Shown piece by piece: positions 6,209-37,719 of a stretch of DNA of 64,000 nt. This DNA is from a virus (Duplodnaviria; Caudoviricetes), in the IMG/VR virus record IMGVR_UViG_3300042282_000085. The stretch is one strand, 5' to 3'. The number at the start of each line of letters is the position of its first letter. Positions within the stretch are counted from its first letter, which is position 1. The position numbers and the translations under genes were made by a program. The notes beneath the pieces are model-generated. The model saw only the letters and a program-made list of their open reading frames with translations, was not told the DNA's origin and did no database searches.

Positions 6209-7996
6209 ATGAACACATTACTTATGCAAAATGACGCTGTCGCCCAGGCGAAGTCTACACTGTCTAGGCTCCACGCGGCAGTAGGTCGTACCAGTACCCT
6301 ATCCCTCAGTGGCGCGTTAGTACCACGCGTGGTACTGGCAAAACTGGTATCCCGTCTCAAAGGGTTAAAACTTTTGCCCTGCCCTGAACTCGAAACCCAT
6401 TTAGTCGCCATCGGTAATGGTATCGATAAAGAAGCCCTTTATACCGTACCCTATATCGGTGCCCGTGTTACAGTAGAGCTCTATGGCATACTGGAAATCA
6501 GTGAGCGCATTGAGACTCTACTGGCTAATAAACAGTCTGCTACCGATAACCGATGGTATTTGCCCATTGGCCGACTCCACCCGCTATCCGTTGAGGTGTG
6601 GATCTACACAGACGTCGAGAACCGTGTACGCGTAGAGTACGTAGACGGGGAGACACGTACGCCGTTTAATGGGACGTTAGGTGACTGGTGTAAGACCATT
6701 TCACCGGCACCACCCACGACATCCAATGTACTGCCGCCTCACCCGACTGGTTCACCTGCGATGGAAGCACGGGGTGAGTCCACCTATGTGAATATAAAAG
6801 CGGTGTACGATGAGTATTGTAAGTCGGTAACCTTCGACCGACGATGGGGTAAGCTCACCCTAACGACGATTCGGGCCTTTGAAGGTCGTGATGAGGAACA
6901 CATTAATTTCCTAGGGGGAAATCTGGTAGGTGTTTATCGGTTACACTGGCGTGCCGATGATGCATCAGAGTGGTATGAGCGACTGCGTATCGATGACGTA
7001 CGTAGCCTGAAACAGGATTTCCACGACCTTCCGACCATTAACCCTGACTTCCATGTCGTGGGGAACCCGATAAACGCAAGTTTCCTATACGCAGTGCACC
7101 GGGTACTGACCGGTGATCTACCCGAACGCGAGCGTACAGAGGTTGCGGTGGCAATCCTTGCACACATGCATTACCAGTTCCTATCCTCCCTACTGTACCA
7201 CCAATTCCCGTACCGGGCACAAGAGGCGATTGCACTGGCACTGTATGACTCTTTGAGTCGTAAATCTATGCTGAAGCAGTACCATACCTGGGGTAACCTT
7301 GTACGGGCGCGGTCGGAAGACATTATCAGTAAGGGTAGCATTCATTACCAGACCCTAATTGACTTTTCAGATGACGAGAAGATCATTTACGCTATCAGTG
7401 ACATCCAGTCTCGTATCCGTGAGGTCGTTAAGAAGTTAAAGTCTGAGTACATGCGTCTACGGGATCAGGATGCACGGGTCATGTCACAGGGCTCTACCTT
7501 AGTGACCCGAGAGGGTGAGACGGTGTTGCGGGAGTTTGAGAATAAAGCCGCCGGGCTGCAACGTGCGCTTAAGGATATCATACTGGATCCCCAGGACCTT
7601 ATTCGCAATGAGGTGCTAGAGAGTACCTTGAAGATGGTCACTACCGCAGATGAACGGTATCTGCGTACCGCACTCCTTTATCTATCCGACGCGATGGGTA
7701 GCAAGGAACGGGCCTCCGTTGAGGCCTTGGTCGATGCGTTAGTAATCTTTATCCAGGGGTATTTGCGTCGTGCACCGGCTAGTGAACGTACCCTTATTCA
7801 TGTGGTCATGAAAGTGCGTAACCTGATGCGCTCCTCACAGCTTGCCGCCTCGGACGCCATTGCCTTACGTAGCCTGACGGCCGATCTTATAGAAAAGGCA
7901 TTGGAAAAACGTAACACTACGGTGCAGGCCTCTACCCGTATTGCAGTCTTAGTTTACCTAACCATTCGCCTACTCACCCTTAATCATTTCAAATAA
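6209..7996 (+). CDS. Conserved phiKZ-like (probable virion) protein with an apparent N-terminal extension
   Basis: C-terminal ~400 aa carry HINFLGGNLVGV, a motif I recall from phiKZ-like phages; Pro-rich linker near aa 165-182. Confidence 0.6.
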   Translation: MNTLLMQNDAVAQAKSTLSRLHAAVGRTSTLSLSGALVPRVVLAKLVSRLKGLKLLPCPELETHLVAIGNGIDKEALYTVPYIGARVTVELYGILEISERIETLLANKQSATDNRWYLPIGRLHPLSVEVWIYTDVENRVRVEYVDGETRTPFNGTLGDWCKTISPAPPTTSNVLPPHPTGSPAMEARGESTYVNIKAVYDEYCKSVTFDRRWGKLTLTTIRAFEGRDEEHINFLGGNLVGVYRLHWRADDASEWYERLRIDDVRSLKQDFHDLPTINPDFHVVGNPINASFLYAVHRVLTGDLPERERTEVAVAILAHMHYQFLSSLLYHQFPYRAQEAIALALYDSLSRKSMLKQYHTWGNLVRARSEDIISKGSIHYQTLIDFSDDEKIIYAISDIQSRIREVVKKLKSEYMRLRDQDARVMSQGSTLVTREGETVLREFENKAAGLQRALKDIILDPQDLIRNEVLESTLKMVTTADERYLRTALLYLSDAMGSKERASVEALVDALVIFIQGYLRRAPASERTLIHVVMKVRNLMRSSQLAASDAIALRSLTADLIEKALEKRNTTVQASTRIAVLVYLTIRLLTLNHFK

Positions 7997-28775: not shown

Positions 28776-29883
28776 TTATTTACGATACACGTCCACTACA
28801 TGTCGGTTCAGTGCCCGTAACGCTTTGTTCGTGGTCCCTACAATGGTGCAGCTATAGAGTATGCGGTTTGCTACGCTCTGATACCCAAAGATTGCGTCTA
28901 ACGGCTCACCCGAGGCGGTCTCATTACGTCCCTCCATGACACGACCTACGATGGTTTTCAGCGCGTTATCGAATACCGCTTTATCCCCTACCGCTGCGGT
29001 AATGTCATGGTCCATGTAGAACGTAATGGCCAAGGTATTAGGCGTTAGCTTCTGACCCCCGACAAAGGTAGGCTCGTTTACTTCACCGGTTGCAGCCGGT
29101 AAGCTCCCTTTATAGCTAACCTCTCGCTTACGCTGACGTGTATCCGCCTTCACAATCTCAGCTAAACTCGGATGCATGTCGTCAGGGTTTCCAAAATACA
29201 CCACCTCACGACGCGTCACCTTACCAACAAACCCGGCCTTAGGTGTTTGGTTTGCAAGTTTAGACAGTCCTAGCAGTGCATCGTCCCCTTGACTGAGTGT
29301 GGCTAACTCAGCCTCCTCGATCACACACAGCGGTACGTCTAGGTCAACCTCTTCTCCGACACCCACAATGTTAGAGACAGCCTGATCGAAACGCACCAAT
29401 ACCGTCTTCATTTTACTGATAGGTGTGGACAGACGTTGTGAAAGTGCAGGGGAAATTGCACACCCATCCTCCAAGGTATCCGCATTCTCCATAAAGGCTA
29501 CCTTCGCCATTACCCCACCCTTCATCGAGACTCCGTTTGGATTTAACCGGTCCCGTTGGAAGTAATGTGTATTCCACGTAACCGCGTACCCTTCTGCTAC
29601 ACTATCCCCTTCCTGTAAGTCCGTTACAATATCATGAGGTAGGACAGCACCCGCGGCTTTACCGTGTCGGATACCCAAGGGCAGGGTAACCGTCTCGCCG
29701 TCCTCATATTGAACCGTTATAGAGTCACGACTCACCTTACTGACCTTACCAGGTTTACTGGCAATATACGCAAAGTTATCCCCACAACGATCAGCAATGA
29801 CCTGCTCATACCCGGTGCGCACAGGCGTAAGCGTGGCATCTTTCGCCGATACCATAGACGATTGCTGTACTGATCCCAAGTTT
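28776..29883 (-). CDS. vRNAP beta subunit (gp178-like), exon 2
   Basis: Beta motifs VRTGYE, EDGCAIS, VGDK, LDAIF; joins exon 1 in frame as DPKRV|NLGSVQQS (1330 aa spliced). Confidence 0.88.
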
Positions 29884-31496
29884 CCTTCTGTCCACTACAG
29901 TCGCGACTCTGTAGCCGGTGTGCTCAGACACCCGCCCTGGGCTTTCCCCAGGGAGCAGACTATATCTTCGCCCTTACTCTTAAGGACGGACGCCGTTTGG
30001 AGCCACCACTGACTTGTGGCCCTACACCGAAGCAACTCGGTTAGTCGTTGAACTCATCCCTTAGCCATAGCCTTAGGGACTTCGCTGCGTCGGTTACCCC
30101 ACACGTTAACCTTTTTACCGTATCGAAGTGGTTAGCTTCGCCCCCATGGGGTGTAATATACACCGGTCACTGTTTCCAGCATGGGTTGGTAGTTAACGCT
30201 CAAAGGGCTTTCCCGCAATTAGACGTCGTACCCAGTACCTTCTGTTACTGGGGCGCACTAAAGTTCTTTAAAGTAATATCCGTAATATTCCACATTTGGA
30301 TGCTTAAGCCCACGACGTACATCATTGTAACTGATGCCTAGCTCCCTAACACAGTCACCCATACACGCAAAGTATCTCTGCTTCCCAGTATCCACGGCAG
30401 TCACCAGAAATGGTCGACCTCGCATCCGCTTAGCCCAATCTACGAAGGGGTCGTCTACAGTGCGCCATGGGTTAGGGTCAGACTTTCGTTTAACCAGAGC
30501 GTAGCGGTCACCAAGTTTAAAAACTGGCTGCTTGTCACCTTTGGATAAGTGTGTTGTCATCGTACCAGAAGTCACCTCTAACGCCTCAGCGGCGGCATTC
30601 TGACTCGAGTACTCCACTACTTCACCCGTGCATAGCCATTTTACTAGCACTTCATTGCCATGGTATACCGGATGTTCGCCTCTACTCACTGCAAGCTTAA
30701 CCTCACCGACTTTAGCTTTCCGCCAACTCTCCCTCTCATAAATGCCGAGGTGTGCAGAGACGTCTACCCATCCAACAAATTCACGCTCTCGCCTGAACTG
30801 AAGGCCATCTTTAAATAAAAGCTCTAGTGGCGCAGCTAAGCGTTGCTGGATGGTGAAAACAGAAAGACCTGTTGCAGCGGCAGCGTCAACGACTTTATTG
30901 AACCGCCCCTCTTCACCTGTTCTTAGGTTTCTCCAGAGTACAGCCGTTGTAGGCTTCTTACCTAAGTCGGCAACCTCAACAAGGGTACCGTTGTGGTTCC
31001 AAGGGTTCGTTTTTCTGACACCTCTAGCCATTGTACTGGGGTGAATGCCAATCGCTTTGGACGCTGAGACTCTAGTGGGGTATATCTTTACAGTGCCGTC
31101 GGGGAACGTTACCTTTGTTTCCTGGCCATGGGGAGTTAAACCGGTGTCAATGGCATGTTGTCGGTTCTCAGATCCACTACACCATTCTAAATTTGTGTAG
31201 TGGTTATTTGACTTCACGCCATCAATGTGGTTAACTTGTGTCTTGGTAGTAGGATCAGGATTGTCCACAAATGCCAGCGCGACTAATTTGTGAACTTTAA
31301 TCCCCGAAACTGACTCGTATCCACGTGACGTTACTGGGGTTCTAAACTTTCCCCTAGCCACGTCGTAGACCCTGCCATCCGGATAAATGCGGAAATTTGG
31401 ATATTCTTTTAAGACTTTAAATTCGGTTTCCATTGTCCATGACTCATGTTGTTAATACATACCATACACAGTCATAGTGACAATTTAACCTATCGT
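29884..31496 (-). mobile_element. Group I intron (1613 nt) in vRNAP beta, HNH gene in L1
   Basis: P AATTGCGGGAAAG, Q CCGACGCAGCG, R GTTCAACGACTA, S AAGATATAGTC; P7.1/P7.2 and P9 hairpins; IGS GUGCGC (30258-30253) pairs exon GCGCGU with U.G; terminal G. Confidence 0.92.
30258..31433 (-). CDS. Intron-encoded HNH homing endonuclease with NUMOD1-like repeats
   Basis: HKLVALAF...VNHIDGVKSNNHYTNLEW; four F/Y-x-S-x-x-x-A-A-type repeats. Confidence 0.9.
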   Translation of the reverse strand: METEFKVLKEYPNFRIYPDGRVYDVARGKFRTPVTSRGYESVSGIKVHKLVALAFVDNPDPTTKTQVNHIDGVKSNNHYTNLEWCSGSENRQHAIDTGLTPHGQETKVTFPDGTVKIYPTRVSASKAIGIHPSTMARGVRKTNPWNHNGTLVEVADLGKKPTTAVLWRNLRTGEEGRFNKVVDAAAATGLSVFTIQQRLAAPLELLFKDGLQFRREREFVGWVDVSAHLGIYERESWRKAKVGEVKLAVSRGEHPVYHGNEVLVKWLCTGEVVEYSSQNAAAEALEVTSGTMTTHLSKGDKQPVFKLGDRYALVKRKSDPNPWRTVDDPFVDWAKRMRGRPFLVTAVDTGKQRYFACMGDCVRELGISYNDVRRGLKHPNVEYYGYYFKEL

Positions 31497-34381
31497 ACGC
31501 GCTTTGGGTCCATTAGGTCCGAACCTGGACCTAGTAAACCAGTTGTAGAGATCAGACTACTGGTACCATCTTTATCAAAATCAAAGCGATCGGTTGTTCC
31601 CCTTAGTGAGTTAACCTTCGCATTGGGGGTCATGTAGGTACGGATTGCAACCTTCGCACTGTCTGGTGTTGTTTCAGAGATAGTTCCCATGTCGTTCGGA
31701 TGGAAGATACGGGTACGCTTCACCATGGTCTTTGCAGATCGACCACCCTGGCCAGTGTAGGTGACACTCTCCTTTTCCTTTAGGTTATGGATCGGGTTAG
31801 ACTCTTCAACCAACATGGTTGCTGGGTCTTTGAGAATATCGTCCCACACGGCATTCGGACGTAAGGAGACCTGTGCGCTGCCAGGGTGACCGGCAGCGCG
31901 CTGTTCCCGTACCGCTTGTACGAGTTGGTTATATACAAAACCTGAGAAACGCTCATACCCACGAATGCGCATTTGAGAACTGTCCATTTCCTCGGTATGT
32001 TCATCGGTGGTTAGCAGCTCAGCGGCCCGTAGAATAAGGGGGATGAATTCGGTTGGCTCCCCCATCTCAGTAAGCAACTCTAAGGTAATGGGGTCAATGA
32101 ACATATCCAACATGAGGTCAAGCTCACGTAGAATGTGACGACCAATCCCCATAGACGCTAGGACCTCGCCGTAGACACCCTTGCGGTTAAAGTCCGACGC
32201 AGGTAGGGTACTGGTGATCCCTTTTACCGCCCGTAGACCACTGAGTACCATGGCACCCTGAGCATGACGGGTATCGATAATCAGCGACTCATCTTGGAAT
32301 CGAATACGTTCTTCGTAGGGCTCCATCGCAGGACGGGTAGTTTTATCAATCCAACGATGGGGGATCTTCAGTGCAGCGATTACCTTATCCAGCCCCATGA
32401 GGTAGCCTAAGGCCAAAGCAACAGGTACCGCTTTACCGTAGACATTAATATCCGCAAACTCGATAGGTCCGTCTCCCCATGCAGGATTAACGACAGCGAC
32501 AAGCGAGCCTATAGACTCTATAGCGGTATCGGTAACGAGATGGAGAATTCCATCCATGGACATGGCGAGCATGGCCTTTCTACGGTTTGTAGGTTGACCA
32601 CAGGGGGTTAGGTTAGCCTGTACCGCTTTAACCGTAAGGGTCTCCCCATAGACCTCAACCCAATCACCCACCGTAAATCGAAAACGGTAGTCTCCACTGG
32701 TAAACTCGGCGACTTCGCGGGCGACGGCTGTAAAGGGGCGTGGAAGGCGTTCTTGTGGAAGGGGCTTAGTGGTATAAACGATGTCGGTTACGGTTGTGTC
32801 GTTTACATCCATGGCCGCTTTGGTAATCTTACTGAGCAGCCAGCGACTGTAGTTGTTAACCGCTTTGGGATTACGGGTTACGAAGATTTTACCGAAGTAC
32901 GAGGCCAGGGATACTTTATCTGGGGCGACCTTTCGAATGGGTAGGTCAAACTTCTGGTGGTCCAGTTTGTACTGTACACCCGCAACCGTATAAATACCCT
33001 CTTCATTTACAACTGGCAATTTAAAGGTAAGCTTAGATGGCTTACCGGCGATCGGTACTAAATCTACGGTATAGACCTTATAGTGGTTAAGGGCATCGCT
33101 GCGCTCCTCAATCGCATAGTCTTTAACCAGAACGCCGGCGTTCTGAATCGAGACCACGGCAGCTGCGACATCTGCCTCTAATAGCTCTTGGACATAGCGG
33201 CGATCAAAGTCCTTTAGCGTAGAACGCAACATGGACTTATCCAGGACAGCGGGGCGTTCAGGTAAGTTCTCTTTACGGGAATCTATTTTAACAGCTTCGG
33301 GTTTAGAGGTAATCAGGTTTTCCAATGTACCCTCACCCACTGGATTGGGCAATGACTTGTATCGAACAGCCAGTTCACTTAAACGACGCTGCTCAGCGGC
33401 ACTGAGCATGCCATTACTACCCAGCCCTTCAACCTGACGGTTAACGTGGTCTTCCCCGATAACCTCAACACTACCTGGATACAGTCCTGAGGTCACCTCT
33501 AGAATGGATTCAGCAGGCGACTCATCCGCTTCCAGTACCTCTTCTTCAGACAGTTCCCGCTCGGGTACACTCTCTGCGGTATCCGTAACCGTACGGGTTT
33601 CCAATATACGGGCTAATGAAGAAAGCAGGTATTTGCGAACTTCTTTAGGTGACTCCAATCCCCAAGTTAGAAAGTCATTGATGTGTAAGAAAGAGACCTT
33701 ACCCGATTCAATCCAGGCAACCATAACGTCATGGTTAAGGGCATGTAGTGGATGTTCAGGGTCCTCTACGGCCAACCAGAGTTCACGGATGAAGAGACGA
33801 CTCAGGTCCATCCATCTTTCGTGTCGGGAGATCGGAATAGGGTTCGGCAACTGATTGAGTTCGGACAGAGTAGGTACCATCTCAGGCAGCGCCAGGGGTA
33901 CAATGTGTACGGTTTCTTCAGTACCGACTGACAGCTGTGCATAGAGGGTCGAGAGTCGGTTGCTGAGCTTATCCATCTCAACCGTACGGCTGACGGGGTA
34001 AAGGTATTGACCCTCAACCAGTGAATAATCAAAGGCGACTGCGGCTTTCATGTAACTTAGACTGCGATCTAAATCCCGACTGCGTGTAATCGGCGCCTGT
34101 GCCTGTTTAAAATATTGCCGTTTACTGGCTTCCAGCGGCACTGCCTTCTTACGGGGATTACCCGCTGTGGCTACCAGGTCCTCTACGTGATGTACAAAGA
34201 CCCGTCCAGTACCTACAATCAATGGATGGGTAGATGGAATCCCCGTCTCAGGCCCATCGATAAAGTGTAGAACACTGTGATAGGGCAGTGCGATGGTATT
34301 TGTATCGGCGATGGTGGGCGACATGAGCTGGGTGACTGTACGGGCACATAGGCTCCGTTTAAACTCGATATACCGAACCAT
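31497..34381 (-). CDS. vRNAP beta subunit (gp178-like), exon 1
   Basis: RIRGYER, NPIHNLKEKE, GQGGRS, GTISETTPDSAKV; ends DPKRV. Confidence 0.9.
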
Positions 34382-34390
34382 AGTAACTCC

Positions 34391-34552
34391 TTACTTAAAT
34401 CCAGTGAAGCTACGCAATACGCGTTCAATGGTTTCTATGTTTGATCCGTTCGCTAAAGACCCAGAGGCATCGACGTAGTTCTCAACTGAGTTAAGCTTAG
34501 CGTCAATTTCAGCCACCGCATCCTCTGCAAACACAAAATGTGTGGAAACTCT
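34391..34552 (-). CDS. vRNAP beta' (gp180-like), exon 2 (53 aa; not in ORF track)
   Basis: RVSTHFVFAEDAVAEIDAKLNSVENYVDASGSLANGSNIETIERVLRSFTGFK*, in frame after GADYDGD (542 aa spliced). Confidence 0.85.
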   Translation of the reverse strand, partial: RVSTHFVFAEDAVAEIDAKLNSVENYVDASGSLANGSNIETIERVLRSFTGFK

Positions 34553-36252
34553 CGTTTCATTCAGTTTGGACGCTACGCCAAACCCGCACCCTTACGTGCC
34601 GCCCTAGGCTTTCCCTAGGATACTAGACCATATCTTCACCCTCCGTTGTCTAGAGGGGTCACCTATTTCGATTTAAGGGATATACCCGCCCGCTTGGGCC
34701 CTACTCCGCGCTACCGGATGGTCGTTGAACGTTCTTCCTAGCTTGCTTCACAGCAATCCGTAGAAGCTTCGCTGCTGATTGCCCATTCTTTATCGGGTTA
34801 GGCTTACGATCACCATACCGAATCCTGTCTATTTTCTCTAGCTTTCGCTCGCACTCACATTTGACCTTTCGGTCTATGTTGTTGCTAGACAGGCTTTAGG
34901 GGTTCCCAGCAATTAAGGTGAGATCAGACTGAGCGTTACCGCCCAGCTGGACAATAGTTATAGTTTATATGTTACAGTATAAGGACCAAATTCTACACGA
35001 CCCAACTCGTTTAGCTCTTTGGTTATCCTAGCCCTAGCCGTGGTATTTAGATAATTACACGCCGCGCGCATAGAGCCTTTAAATACAACCGACTCATCAT
35101 TACGATTTGAAACCACAACCTGTTTAACAGATGGGCATTTTTCGACATTTAGATCGGTTATTGGGACTAGGCTAAAAATAAAGCCATTTATAGGTTTTGG
35201 CTTGGATCTTCTGGTTGCCCGCATTATTGACTTTGTTGGTGCGGCGGTGTCCGCACTAGCGTCCGCGACTGTAGGCCACTTATACGGAACGTTTGACTCC
35301 AAATGCACGCCGTACACGGATCCGTCGCCTTGGTCAACCCCATCAATCCAAAATCTATAACCGTCATACACCTTACCCTTGCCCTGGTTTATCCGCCAAC
35401 GGACAGTCTCGCCACTGTATAGACCTAGGTACTCTGCACACCGGTGCATGCTAGGAAATCTCAATTGCTCTCCAGTGACTACGTTCTCTATGACTATCTG
35501 CTTAGCTTGCACCCTTAGACCTTTATCTGTAGCATGTCTACAGTTTTCTGACCTGGTACAGAATTCTAAGTTCGAAAGGTTGTCGTTACCGGGTACGCCG
35601 TCTATGTGGTTTACGTCTAACTTGTCCACGTTATCGGGGTAATTAAGAAAGGTATACGCTAGTGCTCGATGGCGTTTAACCCTAGTACTGCCACCGTCAC
35701 CTGCTAGGACGCAGCACCAATAGCCGCCAGTGGTATTTCGCCATTTATTAGCCAGCTGCATGTCCTGGACCCATTTAATGGGTCGTCCGGTAATACTGTT
35801 TAACAGGTCACCGTCCTTATTTATAACGTATCGGGTAACCATAGGTACGTGGTAAAATCCTGGAAACCTTTTAGACTCGATAGGTCCATCTTTAAACCTA
35901 TATCCTAGGTTACTCGGGTGTAGATTGCCGTTATCACCAATTGTGCTAAAGGGCACAATTGCAGGTATAACGTCATCTACTGGACGTTTAAAAGCCAGAA
36001 TAACGAGTTTTGCCACAAGTGTCTCTGATGTCCCGTAACCTAAATCAATATCGACAATAGAGTTACCCGAGCCATCTAGTCGTTTATCTAGCTTAGTCCC
36101 GTTCGCATCTAGAACCAAACCTTCTTTATTCACATATACACGGTTATTGTTGGGCCCGCGTACTTCTACAAAACCTTCTATGTCCTTATACTTGTAAAAC
36201 ATATTACACCATATTGTAGTTTACTTATACAATATGATGGTTATAACTTTTT
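34553..36252 (-). mobile_element. Group I intron (1700 nt) inserted directly after the catalytic DYDGD motif, HNH gene in L1
   Basis: P AATTGCTGGGAA, Q AATCAGCAG, R GTTCAACGACCA, S AAGATATGGTC; P7 GACCA/TGGTC versus GACTA/TAGTC in the other intron; terminal G. Confidence 0.92.
34958..36202 (-). CDS. Intron-encoded HNH homing endonuclease (degenerate plus intact HNH, NUMOD1-like repeats)
   Basis: HRALAYTF...VNHIDGVPGNDNLSNLEFCT; FPSMHRCAEYLG. Confidence 0.9.
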   Translation of the reverse strand: MFYKYKDIEGFVEVRGPNNNRVYVNKEGLVLDANGTKLDKRLDGSGNSIVDIDLGYGTSETLVAKLVILAFKRPVDDVIPAIVPFSTIGDNGNLHPSNLGYRFKDGPIESKRFPGFYHVPMVTRYVINKDGDLLNSITGRPIKWVQDMQLANKWRNTTGGYWCCVLAGDGGSTRVKRHRALAYTFLNYPDNVDKLDVNHIDGVPGNDNLSNLEFCTRSENCRHATDKGLRVQAKQIVIENVVTGEQLRFPSMHRCAEYLGLYSGETVRWRINQGKGKVYDGYRFWIDGVDQGDGSVYGVHLESNVPYKWPTVADASADTAAPTKSIMRATRRSKPKPINGFIFSLVPITDLNVEKCPSVKQVVVSNRNDESVVFKGSMRAACNYLNTTARARITKELNELGRVEFGPYTVTYKL

Positions 36253-37719
36253 ATCGCCATCGTAGTCAGCCCCAAGGCCGACTAACGCAAATGGACTTAC
36301 GATCGTAGTTGAGATAAACTCGCTTTTACCGACAGTGTTTGGAAACTCAGGGTACACCTGTCCTTCTGATTCCAACTCCCAACTTTCATTATAAGTGTGT
36401 AGAATGTGTGAGGTTACGGTAGAGCGCAAGTACACCGTAGAGGGATACGTAGAACCCTGACCTGTAACTGGGTATCGGGTAATGTAGCAGCGCACGCGAT
36501 GTACGTACTGCTGGGCCTCAATGTAGAAATACTCCGCCCAGGTTAGAGGACGTACTGTAGAGGCATCCTTATCCTCGGGTAACTCAGCGATTGAGTCCAA
36601 TAGCTTGAAGCCTTTCTCATCCTGATAGACGAGTTTAAGGTAATGGTCGCTTACCATAATGGGTCGATGACGGCGTTCGACCTCACTGAAGGCTTTAATT
36701 AGCTTAGCTCGACCGGCCTCTGTAGCCCAACTCACACGCTCCGACTCATCTAACTTCACCCGGTGAGAGGTAAGGGTTTTAGGGTCAATGAGGTAGGGCT
36801 CATAATCGGCCTCTGCAATCAGGTTCCGTGCAATGCCATTAGGCATTTGAAAGCCGGTCATAACCGGTTCGGTGCCTTTAATGAACTGATAGATTCCCAC
36901 CTGTGTCGTCGTCAGGTCAAAGCTACGCGGTCCGTCCAAATCTGAACCCGCTGGATCCATAGCCGAAATTACGTTGGCTGTAGCAAAGGCAACTCGACGA
37001 GATCCCCATTTAGACTGTAGGAAGCCCTGTTTACCACCTAACATCCCCATGATAATCGTCCAAATCTGCTGAACGGAGGATTGGATAGACCAGCGCGTCG
37101 CATTGAGCACGGGGTCGTTCTTAAAGGCGAGGGCTTCTGAAATTCCGTTGGTAGCGGCAATCACCTTACGGTAGAGTTTATTGATCTCCTGCTCAACCGG
37201 ACGATCTTGCTCATCAATGTCCAGATCCCGAAGGCCTGCAGGCATGACGATTAAAAAGTTAAGGACAGACCTGTCTCTGTACTTATTAATGAGGTCAATG
37301 ACGATATCACGACGATAGGACTTCGTGCGGGGAATCTCGATCTCTTTAAAGTGCTTCATGAAGAAGGCATAGCCAGTTTCACCTTCGAGTACGTCTGACC
37401 GTACGAAGTCTTTTAGCTCAGCGTCCCAGATCGCATAGGCACGGCCTTGCATAATGTCTTTATACAGGCTCTTTAACCGGGTGATGTCTTCAAAGACCTT
37501 AGGGTGGAGAACTTGAGTCCGTAAGTTAATATACCCATGGCGGGTCATACGGCTATCACTACCGACAGGGCCAAAGATTAGATCAGAGTAGAGTCCTGTA
37601 GGATGGAACTCTCGACCCTGCACAAACATCTCTAATGACTTAACGGGTAAGAGACCCGCAATGCGTTGGAGACGATTTTCTAGCAGGGCAATGTTGAAAG
37701 GTTTACTTCTATTGGACAT
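36253..37719 (-). CDS. vRNAP beta' subunit (gp180-like), exon 1
   Basis: GLYSDLIFG, MPAGLRD, GKQGF, TRYP, GADYDGD. Confidence 0.92.

Follow-up and report, generated by a model that had tools for sequence, protein, structure and literature searches.

Probable P1-loop HNH endonuclease genes in two group I introns of adjacent jumbo-phage-type RNA polymerase genes

Two adjacent RNA polymerase (RNAP) subunit genes of the phiKZ-like jumbo-phage type, encoded on a 64,000-nt stretch of IMG/VR record IMGVR_UViG_3300042282_000085 (Duplodnaviria; Caudoviricetes) that is referred to here as the window, each contain a group I intron (introns 1 and 2; positions are those of the window, and all listed window features lie on its minus strand). 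These are probably two mobile introns that harbor an HNH homing endonuclease gene (HEG) in the loop that caps P1 and its extension, with an inherited layout, an incidental HEG stop position and a conflict between HEG translation and P1 formation. A first-pass annotation of the same DNA had placed the HEG in loop L1 with its stop codon on the guide strand of P1, and had taken the recurrence of this arrangement in two otherwise divergent introns as a sign of selection. The observation is real in part, and the interpretation attached to it is partly supported.

Both introns have an IA-type core. The matches to the Rfam group I family RF00028 (gathering score 50) extend over 30285..29935 in intron 1 (67.2 bits) and 35022..34603 in intron 2 (61.6 bits), in each case directly 3′ of an HNH open reading frame (ORF; 31433..30258 and 36202..34958, respectively) and with P7 and J8-7 intact. 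Removal of each intron restores a conserved reading frame in a gapless alignment over both junctions. Exon 1 of gene A, which encodes the β′-like subunit, terminates in GADYDGD, i. e. the catalytic Asp motif, and intron 2 is inserted exactly after the DYDGD codons. Its splice sites, GAU|AAAAAG and GAAACG|AGAGUU (the bar denotes a junction), lead to DGD-RV-STH, which aligns without gaps to the three intron-less homologues L005 (DGD-RG-ST), Vibrio phage sm033 (DGD-ML-SC) and L006 (DGD-TS-SA). This junction and an alternative one both follow the rule of a U at exon position -1 and a terminal G; in the former, the last intron bases ...AAACG| supply this omega G before the 3′ exon. The alternative, AAAAAGUU|AUAACC combined with ACGAG|AGUU, was rejected because the resulting DGD-KKLV-STH requires an insertion of two amino acids, located immediately behind the catalytic motif, relative to all three intron-less homologues, and because the splice-site pair would be U-A. 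As only the former junction aligns gaplessly to these homologues, intron 2 is assigned to 36252..34553. The heptamer AGUUAUA, previously taken as the intron start, corresponds to intron positions +5 to +11; according to the gapless alignment and the HEG-less allele described below, the intron begins 8 nt upstream of the earlier start, at 36252. Intron 1 is located at PKR|V|NLG of the β-like gene B, between the 5′ splice site GCGCGU|ACGAUAGG and the 3′ splice site GAAGG|AAACUU, again with a U at exon -1 and a G as the final intron base. Joining of ...CGC GU (last exon base 31497) with A AAC UUG... (29883) affords ...MDPKR-V-NLGSVQQS..., which is gapless relative to sm033 (DGKR-Q-NLGSVQQS), L005 (DPKR-I-NMSS) and Goslar. 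The predicted spliced joins are thus GAU|AGAGUU and GCGCGU|AAACUU, or, written out, ...GAUGGCGAU|AGAGUUUCC... and ...AAGCGCGU|AAACUUGGG..., and the full-length products would comprise 542 and 1330 amino acids.

The placement of the HEG becomes apparent from an allele of intron 2 that lacks it. Two IMG/VR contigs, L004 and L003, match the window at 91-93% nucleotide identity. In L004 (91%), 18 nt (L004:11471-11488) stand in place of about 1.3 kb of the window (36249..34953), which include the entire HEG, while the flanks align on both sides. The 5′ splice region of L004 reads GAU|GAAUGAUUGUCACCAAUCAACGUCCCACUGGGCAGUAAUGUUCAG. In its minimum free energy (MFE) fold, GAU|G and CGUC form a helix with U.G as the splice-site pair, to which exon UGG and CCA contribute further pairs beyond a bulged C; next come an AA/A internal loop, the 6-bp helix UGAUUG/CAAUCA with its 4-nt loop (UCAC), and P2. 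This P1 extension, stacked on P1, is here called P1a. The HEG-less intron of L003 differs from that of L004 solely within the loop (UUAC). The register GAU|G/CGUC plus P1a is preferred because its position matches that of the HEG-containing alleles and because it represents the minimum-energy fold; GAUGA/UUGUC with an AUGA loop, as well as the register of the Rfam alignment, were considered and not preferred. Intron 2 of the window keeps the L004 geometry with a HEG in the loop, and HEG 2 therefore lies in the loop of P1, more exactly of P1a. Here, an AA/A internal loop separates P1 (GAU|AA/UUGUC, with G34952 as the wobble partner of the splice-site U) from P1a (AGUUAUA/UAUAACU), and P1a encloses a loop of ~1.28 kb that holds HEG 2. 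Hence, the earlier assignment of the HEG to L1 holds, as does that of a P1 formed across 1.2-1.3 kb, the pairings of the two introns spanning 1.24-1.3 kb. The window sequence 36249-34953 and L004:11471-11488 constitute a HEG presence/absence polymorphism and a natural before/after pair for HEG invasion of the P1a loop.

The strings quoted in the first-pass annotation are present at the quoted coordinates, and UAUAACU (34962-34956), with the HEG 2 stop codon UAA inside, pairs perfectly with AGUUAUA (36248-36242). This 7-bp helix had been regarded as the P1 of intron 2 with a U-A pair at the splice site; it is real, but represents P1a, whereas P1 is GAU|AA/UUGUC with a U.G pair. The 3′ strand of P1a thus contains the HEG 2 stop (34960-34958), and the wobble G follows 6 nt further downstream. 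That the stop codon lies on the guide strand is accordingly correct insofar as the last codons or the stop are on or beside it in both introns, but not for the intron 2 stop itself. The exon-1 stop (36243-36241) and the HEG 2 stop are found on opposite strands of the same 7-bp P1a. A P10 between exon-2 AGUU and AACU had also been suggested. Such a pairing is possible, but is to be corrected to exon-2 AGAGUU with AACUAUU (34959-34953), which displaces the intron's AAAAAGUU. In Shewanella phage FishSpeaker, the insertion site is again this codon (DNDGD|QLN), and the intron there has GAU/GUC and the P1a UACAUUA/UAAUGUA. The position of P1a is therefore kept with a different sequence, i. e. three helix sequences in the window, L004 and FishSpeaker, and GUC(C) immediately 5′ of P2 is retained in all four same-site introns.

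These features bear directly on an alternative in which P1 would form locally near the 5′ splice site, with the HEG between P1 and P2 or in L2 and the long-range pairings being fortuitous. Candidates for such helices exist, since intron 2 offers exon GAUGG with intron CCAUC as well as a UUGU 25 nt into the intron, and Rfam forces local P1-like hairpins within the 3′ ends of the ORFs. Yet, the local UUGU is buried in the 12-bp hairpin at the HEG 2 start, the introns compared here do not have the local helices in common, and intron 1 lacks any local candidate that gives a U.G splice-site pair plus flanking pairs. Moreover, the HEG-less allele closes exactly the helix that involves the GUC(C) kept 5′ of P2 in the four same-site introns. 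A local P1, which the first-pass annotation had named as the finding that would speak against its proposal, is thus very improbable for these introns.

In intron 1, GUGCGC (30258-30253), which pairs with exon GCGCGU as described earlier, ranks second among 1599 intron positions for pairing with the 5′ splice-site region and directly abuts P2. It is this abutting guide that argues for a HEG in L1 here, the HEG-less allele being known for intron 2 only. Exon GCGCGU allows two P1 registers. GCGCGU/GUGCGC contains tandem wobbles, uses the G of the stop codon as wobble partner and amounts to -6.7 kcal/mol, whereas GCGU|AC/GUGCGC, with the U.G pair at G30256 and the stop's G paired to intron +2, reaches -9.9 kcal/mol. 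Upon addition of the 5-bp extension AGGUU/AACUU, these values become -7.9 and -13.0 kcal/mol, respectively. The HEG 1 stop codon contributes to P1 in either register. The former claim that its G forms the splice-site wobble therefore stands with respect to the stop being part of P1, but the stabler register uses G30256 instead; GCGCGU/GUGCGC is conceivable by homology with L003-X, a further HEG-containing intron introduced below. An intron 1 mini-construct folds as P1, P1a and P2, and the predicted structure of the initial 100 nt of intron 1, dominated by the HEG 1 start hairpin, offers no local P1 instead. Intron 1 of L004 is identical to the window around P1 and hence uninformative for covariation. 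Further downstream, the P9.2 stem shows a double compensatory change between the window (29905-29925, ACAG...CUGU) and L004:16512-16535 (GUAG...CUAC), which supports that the RNA is still under structural selection. The features of both genes and introns are compiled in Table 1.

Table 1. RNAP genes, introns, helices and HEGs in the window.
Feature	Position	Strand	Basis or remark
Gene A (RNAP β′-like subunit), exon 1	36253..37719	-	tblastn to Vibrio phage sm033 RNAP subunit, 44% identity
Intron 2, group I, 1700 nt	34553..36252	-	Rfam core, gapless spliced alignment, HEG-less allele in L004 and L003
Intron 2 P1 5′ strand GAU|AA (exon -3 to intron +2)	36251..36255	-	pairs with UUGUC, U.G at splice site
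Intron 2 P1a 5′ strand AGUUAUA	36242..36248	-	7 Watson-Crick pairs; overlaps exon-frame stop UAA 36243-36241
Hairpin, 12 bp, just 5′ of HEG 2 start codon	36207..36239	-	MFE fold of local region
HEG 2, 414-aa HNH endonuclease ORF, stop UAA 34960-34958	34958..36202	-	Pfam HNH_3; homology to 8 other intron HEGs
Intron 2 P1a 3′ strand UAUAACU	34956..34962	-	includes HEG 2 stop codon
Intron 2 internal guide UUGUC (P1 3′ strand)	34950..34954	-	pairing; homologous GUC in L004, L003, FishSpeaker
Intron 2 P2 hairpin CUGGGCG-GUAA-CGCUCAG	34929..34946	-	compensatory changes vs L004 (CUGGGCA-GUAA-UGUUCAG)
Intron 2 catalytic core P3-P9	34603..34928	-	RF00028, 61.6 bits
Gene A, exon 2 (RVSTHFVFAED...FK, then stop)	34391..34552	-	spliced model
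Gene B (RNAP β-like subunit), exon 1, end ...MDPKR + GU	31497..34381	-	tblastn to sm033; spliced model
Intron 1, group I, 1613 nt	29884..31496	-	Rfam core, gapless spliced protein
Intron 1 P1 5′ strand (exon -6 to intron +2, both registers)	31495..31502	-	pairing
Intron 1 P1a 5′ strand AGGUU	31487..31491	-	pairing, fold; overlaps exon-frame stop UAG (+5 to +7)
Hairpin over HEG 1 start region	31432..31484	-	MFE fold
HEG 1, 391-aa HNH endonuclease ORF, stop UAG 30260-30258	30258..31433	-	Pfam HNH_3
Intron 1 P1a 3′ strand AACUU (last two sense codons of HEG 1)	30261..30265	-	pairing
Intron 1 internal guide GUGCGC	30253..30258	-	first G is third base of HEG 1 stop codon
Intron 1 P2 hairpin CCCAGUA-ACAGAAGG-UACUGGG	30231..30252	-	sequence, Rfam, fold
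Intron 1 catalytic core P3-P9	29935..30230	-	RF00028, 67.2 bits
Gene B, exon 2	28776..29883	-	tblastn; spliced model

HEG 1 and HEG 2 are predicted HNH (I-HmuI-like) homing endonucleases. HEG 1 matches Pfam HNH_3 with 27.0 bits (cut-off 24.8) and an I-HmuI NUMOD-like family with 22.3 bits, below its 27-bit cut-off, while HEG 2 scores 24.5 bits for HNH_3, slightly below the cut-off of 24.8; the two ORFs have unambiguous HNH_3/NUMOD1 HEGs, among them that of phiKZ gp56, as homologues. A comparison of related jumbo-phage introns covered nine cases, i. e. the two introns of the window, L003-X, L095 and L097 (both from G001, the contig of L004), and those of FishSpeaker, Photobacterium phage PDCC-1, Klebsiella phage phiKp_32 and phiKZ gp56. 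L003-X is an extra HEG-containing intron 12 nt upstream of the HEG-less one in L003, at GCUGAU|UAC, with a core ~75% identical to that of intron 1; in its P1, GAU|UA/UAGUC, the stop's G is the wobble G, and its P1a comprises 9-10 bp. Among the four Rfam group I matches of G001, the two additional ones are L097, which interrupts a paralogue of the RNAP β′ gene at NAD|FDGD, and L095, in a gene ending ...REDYDGDT.... The order exon, HNH ORF, core is seen in all nine introns, which extends the layout beyond what had been claimed; P1 was not confidently assigned for phiKp_32, PDCC-1 and phiKZ. The nine HNH_3 ORFs share 23-41% mutual identity in their core, and their C-termini do not align. They end between 17 nt before and 12 nt inside the start of P2 (Table 2), and in three of the nine (phiKZ gp56, L095 and L097) the reading frame continues across the guide and reaches P2 or L2. 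A GUAA tetraloop on P2 supplies the UAA stop of phiKZ gp56 and L095. To quantify the long-range pairing, that between the first 30 nt of each intron and the 36 nt before P2 was compared with a background of ORF-internal windows. According to the values obtained (Table 2), which are exceptional for phiKZ gp56, phiKp_32, PDCC-1 and L097, the long-range closing helix is a property of the family that is weak in the two introns of the window taken alone.

Table 2. HEG stop position and long-range pairing in nine jumbo-phage introns. The gap is the distance between the stop codon and the start of P2 (negative, ORF runs into P2); the pairing-test fraction is the fraction of background windows pairing at least as well.
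Intron	Stop-to-P2 gap	Pairing-test fraction
Window intron 1	+5 nt	0.26
Window intron 2	+11 nt	0.16
L003-X	+2 nt	0.057
FishSpeaker	+17 nt	0.59
phiKZ gp56	-12 nt	0/157
L095	-12 nt	0.32
L097	-7 nt	0.012
phiKp_32	+17 nt	0/166; includes perfect 14-bp helix starting in stop codon
PDCC-1	+11 nt	0.010

These data allow the proposed selection to be weighed. In that explanation, a ribosome terminating on the HEG would melt P1, such that one transcript gives either nuclease or spliced RNAP mRNA, and two divergent introns would have converged on this switch. In its favor, the stop is at most 17 nt from P2 in all nine introns, so that the guide would in every case be covered by a ribosome, whether elongating or terminating, and the stop's G is itself a P1 base in intron 1 and L003-X. 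The hairpins over the HEG starts suggest restrained translation, and ribosome occupancy of core sequence is known to cause a splicing defect in T4 td (PMC3073962). However, the position of the stop is not conserved, but varies between +17 and -12 nt with respect to P2, with the three read-through cases noted above, and the splice-site pair of intron 2 is not the U-A of the P1 that had been put forward. Shared descent is favored over convergence because the HEGs are homologous and the cores related, which indicates that the arrangement was inherited. Shared ancestry combined with gradual movement of the ORF end thus appears to be the simpler account of the layout, explaining it better than selection for an overlap of stop and guide, and a selected switch seems unlikely. 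Given the size of its footprint, a ribosome finishing the HEG, or one ending exon 1, would cover the guide. As the exon-1 ribosome, which stops at intron +5 to +12, would block P1 anyway, the coincidence of stop and guide probably adds no specific control. In addition, relatives of the window phage form a nucleus and thereby keep transcription and translation uncoupled (PMC12908238), which also speaks against such a switch.

Along the RNA, the layout has the following order. The 5′ splice site is followed by the short 5′ strands of P1 and P1a, which also carry the stop codon of the upstream exon (UAG at +5 to +7 in intron 1, UAA at +10 to +12 in intron 2), then by a predicted hairpin over the ribosome-binding region of the HEG, the HEG ORF, the 3′ strands of P1a and P1 including the guide, and finally P2 and the core. 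Because the ORF fills the loop completely, the last HEG codons or the stop come to lie on or beside the guide strand. This composite of intron and HEG may have arisen in a common ancestor and spread to several sites in jumbo (phiKZ-like) phages, and we infer that the precise stop position is an incidental result of ORF lengthening or shortening, which Edgell, Chalamcharla and Belfort call core creep (PMC3073962). HEG translation and P1 formation would be incompatible on one RNA, a conflict that is physically plausible and, in principle, already known. It could be handled as in T4 td/I-TevI, i. e. with the start hairpin keeping HEG translation low. In that system, translation of I-TevI into td core sequence results in a splicing defect (PMC3073962, citing Gibb & Edgell 2010), and hairpins that sequester the ribosome-binding site limit I-TevI translation. 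Most group I introns contain an in-frame stop just after the 5′ junction (PMC3073962). Likewise, hairpins are predicted by MFE folding at both HEG starts of the window, where GGUG inside the 12-bp hairpin of intron 2 may be the Shine-Dalgarno sequence of HEG 2, and the exon-frame stops lie just after the 5′ junctions, as in this summary.

Judged by its relatives, the window phage may form a nucleus, in which case splicing would precede contact between RNA and ribosomes. With phiKZ gp54 as chimallin query, neither the 64-kb window nor G001, a relative that is 71% complete, gave a match, this being an insensitive test, and ORF 6209-7996 was rejected as chimallin since it is a conserved structural protein. 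Conceivably, the P1/P1a helix enclosing the HEG could even decide between splicing and ribosome lock-out in nucleus-forming jumbo phages. In the ribosome-free nucleus, the long-range P1 would form, the RNAP mRNA would be spliced, and the excised intron would be exported as HEG mRNA, while a cytoplasmic precursor would be locked from splicing by ribosomes at the two stops on opposite P1a strands. If true, selection would keep the ORF end at the guide strand throughout this intron family. The combination of these steps is improbable.

Several points weigh against two mobile introns with P1-loop HEGs as described here. The P1 core of intron 2 comprises merely 5 bp, its minimum-energy dimer favors the register with U-A at the splice site, and the fold of its mini-construct favors the local exon-intron helix GAUGG/CCAUC. 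P1 of L004 admits two or three registers, of which the Rfam alignment uses a different one, and with wide windows the pairing-test fractions of introns 1 and 2 are not exceptional on their own. Splicing of both introns and the P1 register are predictions, and ONT-cappable-seq detected no spliced reads for the related introns of phiKZ gp56, gp72 and gp179 under the conditions tested (PMC10914365). The last result could also mean that such introns no longer splice, with the RNAP genes permanently split into separate polypeptides and the cores being relics, in line with the natural division of jumbo-phage RNAP subunits among several genes. This possibility is nevertheless remote. Both cores exceed the Rfam threshold and retain P7 and J8-7, and helices differ between the window and L004 by compensatory changes. 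Moreover, exon 2 of gene A (53 amino acids) lacks a start codon of its own, its junction precisely restores DGD-RV-STH, and a functional split is improbable at a site immediately behind the catalytic DxDGD.

P1-located ORFs and overlaps between ORF and core are already known, and the introns of the window add further members to this group. The T4 td/I-TevI system is alike in being a phage IA-type intron in which the 3′ end of the HEG overlaps ribozyme helices, a hairpin covers the ribosome-binding site, and ribosome occupancy impairs splicing (PMC3073962). In contrast to the HNH enzymes of the window, which are encoded in the P1/P1a loop and overlap or abut the guide strand and P2, the GIY-YIG enzyme I-TevI is encoded in the P6a loop and overlaps P6a/P7. 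With regard to the overlap of the ORF 3′ end with splicing helices, both stops of the window are in or next to the 3′ strands of P1/P1a, and a control of the td/I-TevI type by translation versus splicing may, by analogy, operate here. Closer in position are the ORFs listed as inserted in P1 in Table 1 of PMC3073962, i. e. I-SspI from the tRNA-fMet intron of Synechocystis PCC 6803 with a 61-nt overlap with P1/P2, and I-PpoI from Physarum PpLSU3 with none. The overlap of I-SspI matches the read-through in phiKZ gp56, L095 and L097. However, these enzymes belong to the PD-(D/E)XK and His-Cys box families, respectively, their hosts are tRNA and rRNA genes, and neither resides in a phage protein-coding gene. 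I-HmuI from the DNA polymerase intron of Bacillus phage SPO1 represents the same HNH/NUMOD-type family of nicking HEGs, although the NUMOD-like match is weak and below cut-off here, and is located in P8 with a 9-nt overlap, not in P1 (PMC3073962, Table 1).

HEG introns in jumbo-phage RNAP genes have been reported before (PMC11620839). That of PhiPA3 gp210 (RNAP β; PMC11620839) and the predicted ones of phiKZ gp56, gp72 and gp179 are likewise HNH HEG introns at conserved catalytic residues. The papers deal with competition between phages and, in the text consulted, give no description of a placement in the P1 loop. phiKZ gp56 shares the HEG-before-core layout and a strong long-range helix with the window, whereas the PhiPA3 gene 065 locus differs by its HEG-less intron. 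The present analysis assigns exact junctions to two introns of essential polymerase genes, models their structure and removes an apparent non-canonical U-A splice site. The layout of P1, P1a and HEG with a long-range closing helix, including that of phiKZ gp56, aids the annotation of genes that are often deposited as fragments or 'hypothetical', and helps to choose constructs for splicing and homing work as done for PhiPA3 gp210. The regulatory idea adds little beyond T4 td/I-TevI, except if a role of the phage nucleus were demonstrated.

The closest database phage for the RNAP genes is sm033 with just 44% protein identity, about 313 phage records match, and megablast of the window returned no match except a 58-nt intron fragment. 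Split RNAP genes and the conserved structural gene are common to ~290-313 phiKZ-like phage records. Close relatives of HEG 2 are almost absent from IMG/VR, and Rfam detected no group I intron among the 20 most promising of 80 IMG/VR loci with HEG 1 relatives, for which a motif pre-screen had yielded noise.

Further observations concern the related introns. In L003:11457-13370, tandem group I introns interrupt the catalytic motif, separated by the 12-nt mini-exon UACGACGGCGAU (YDGD); the first bears a 357-aa HNH HEG, and the second corresponds to intron 2 of the window without its HEG. These 12 nt must be shared between the second intron, for its guide pairing, and the first, for its 3′-exon pairing. 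G001 carries at least four group I introns, three with HNH HEGs in the P1-loop position and a fourth that is the HEG-less intron 2. In its L097:400-440, the 5′ splice site GCUGAU|AAU is located in the loop of a perfect 9-bp exon-intron hairpin, CUCCUAACG...CGUUAGGAG, a possible competitor of P1 comparable to P(-1) of Tetrahymena pre-rRNA. In phiKp_32, a perfect 14-bp long-range helix, AAGAAGUGAGAGUU / AACUCUCACUUCUU (L092:1658-1671 and 2712-2725), connects the intron's 5′ end with bases starting inside the HEG stop codon. Its exon 2 as read, DFDGKRIAA followed by a stop, is very short, and a second interruption may follow. The PDCC-1 intron at the site equivalent to that of intron 2 appears to follow GAC, not GAU (L091:1360-1370), and this candidate junction would place C-G instead of U.G at the 5′ splice site. 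Finally, HEG-less group I introns are found in neighbouring or homologous RNAP genes of Goslar (L002:9020-9448) and PhiPA3 (gene 065, L089:2741-3034), which are nucleus-forming phages; these introns start immediately where the upstream ORF ends, and their P1 is hence local.

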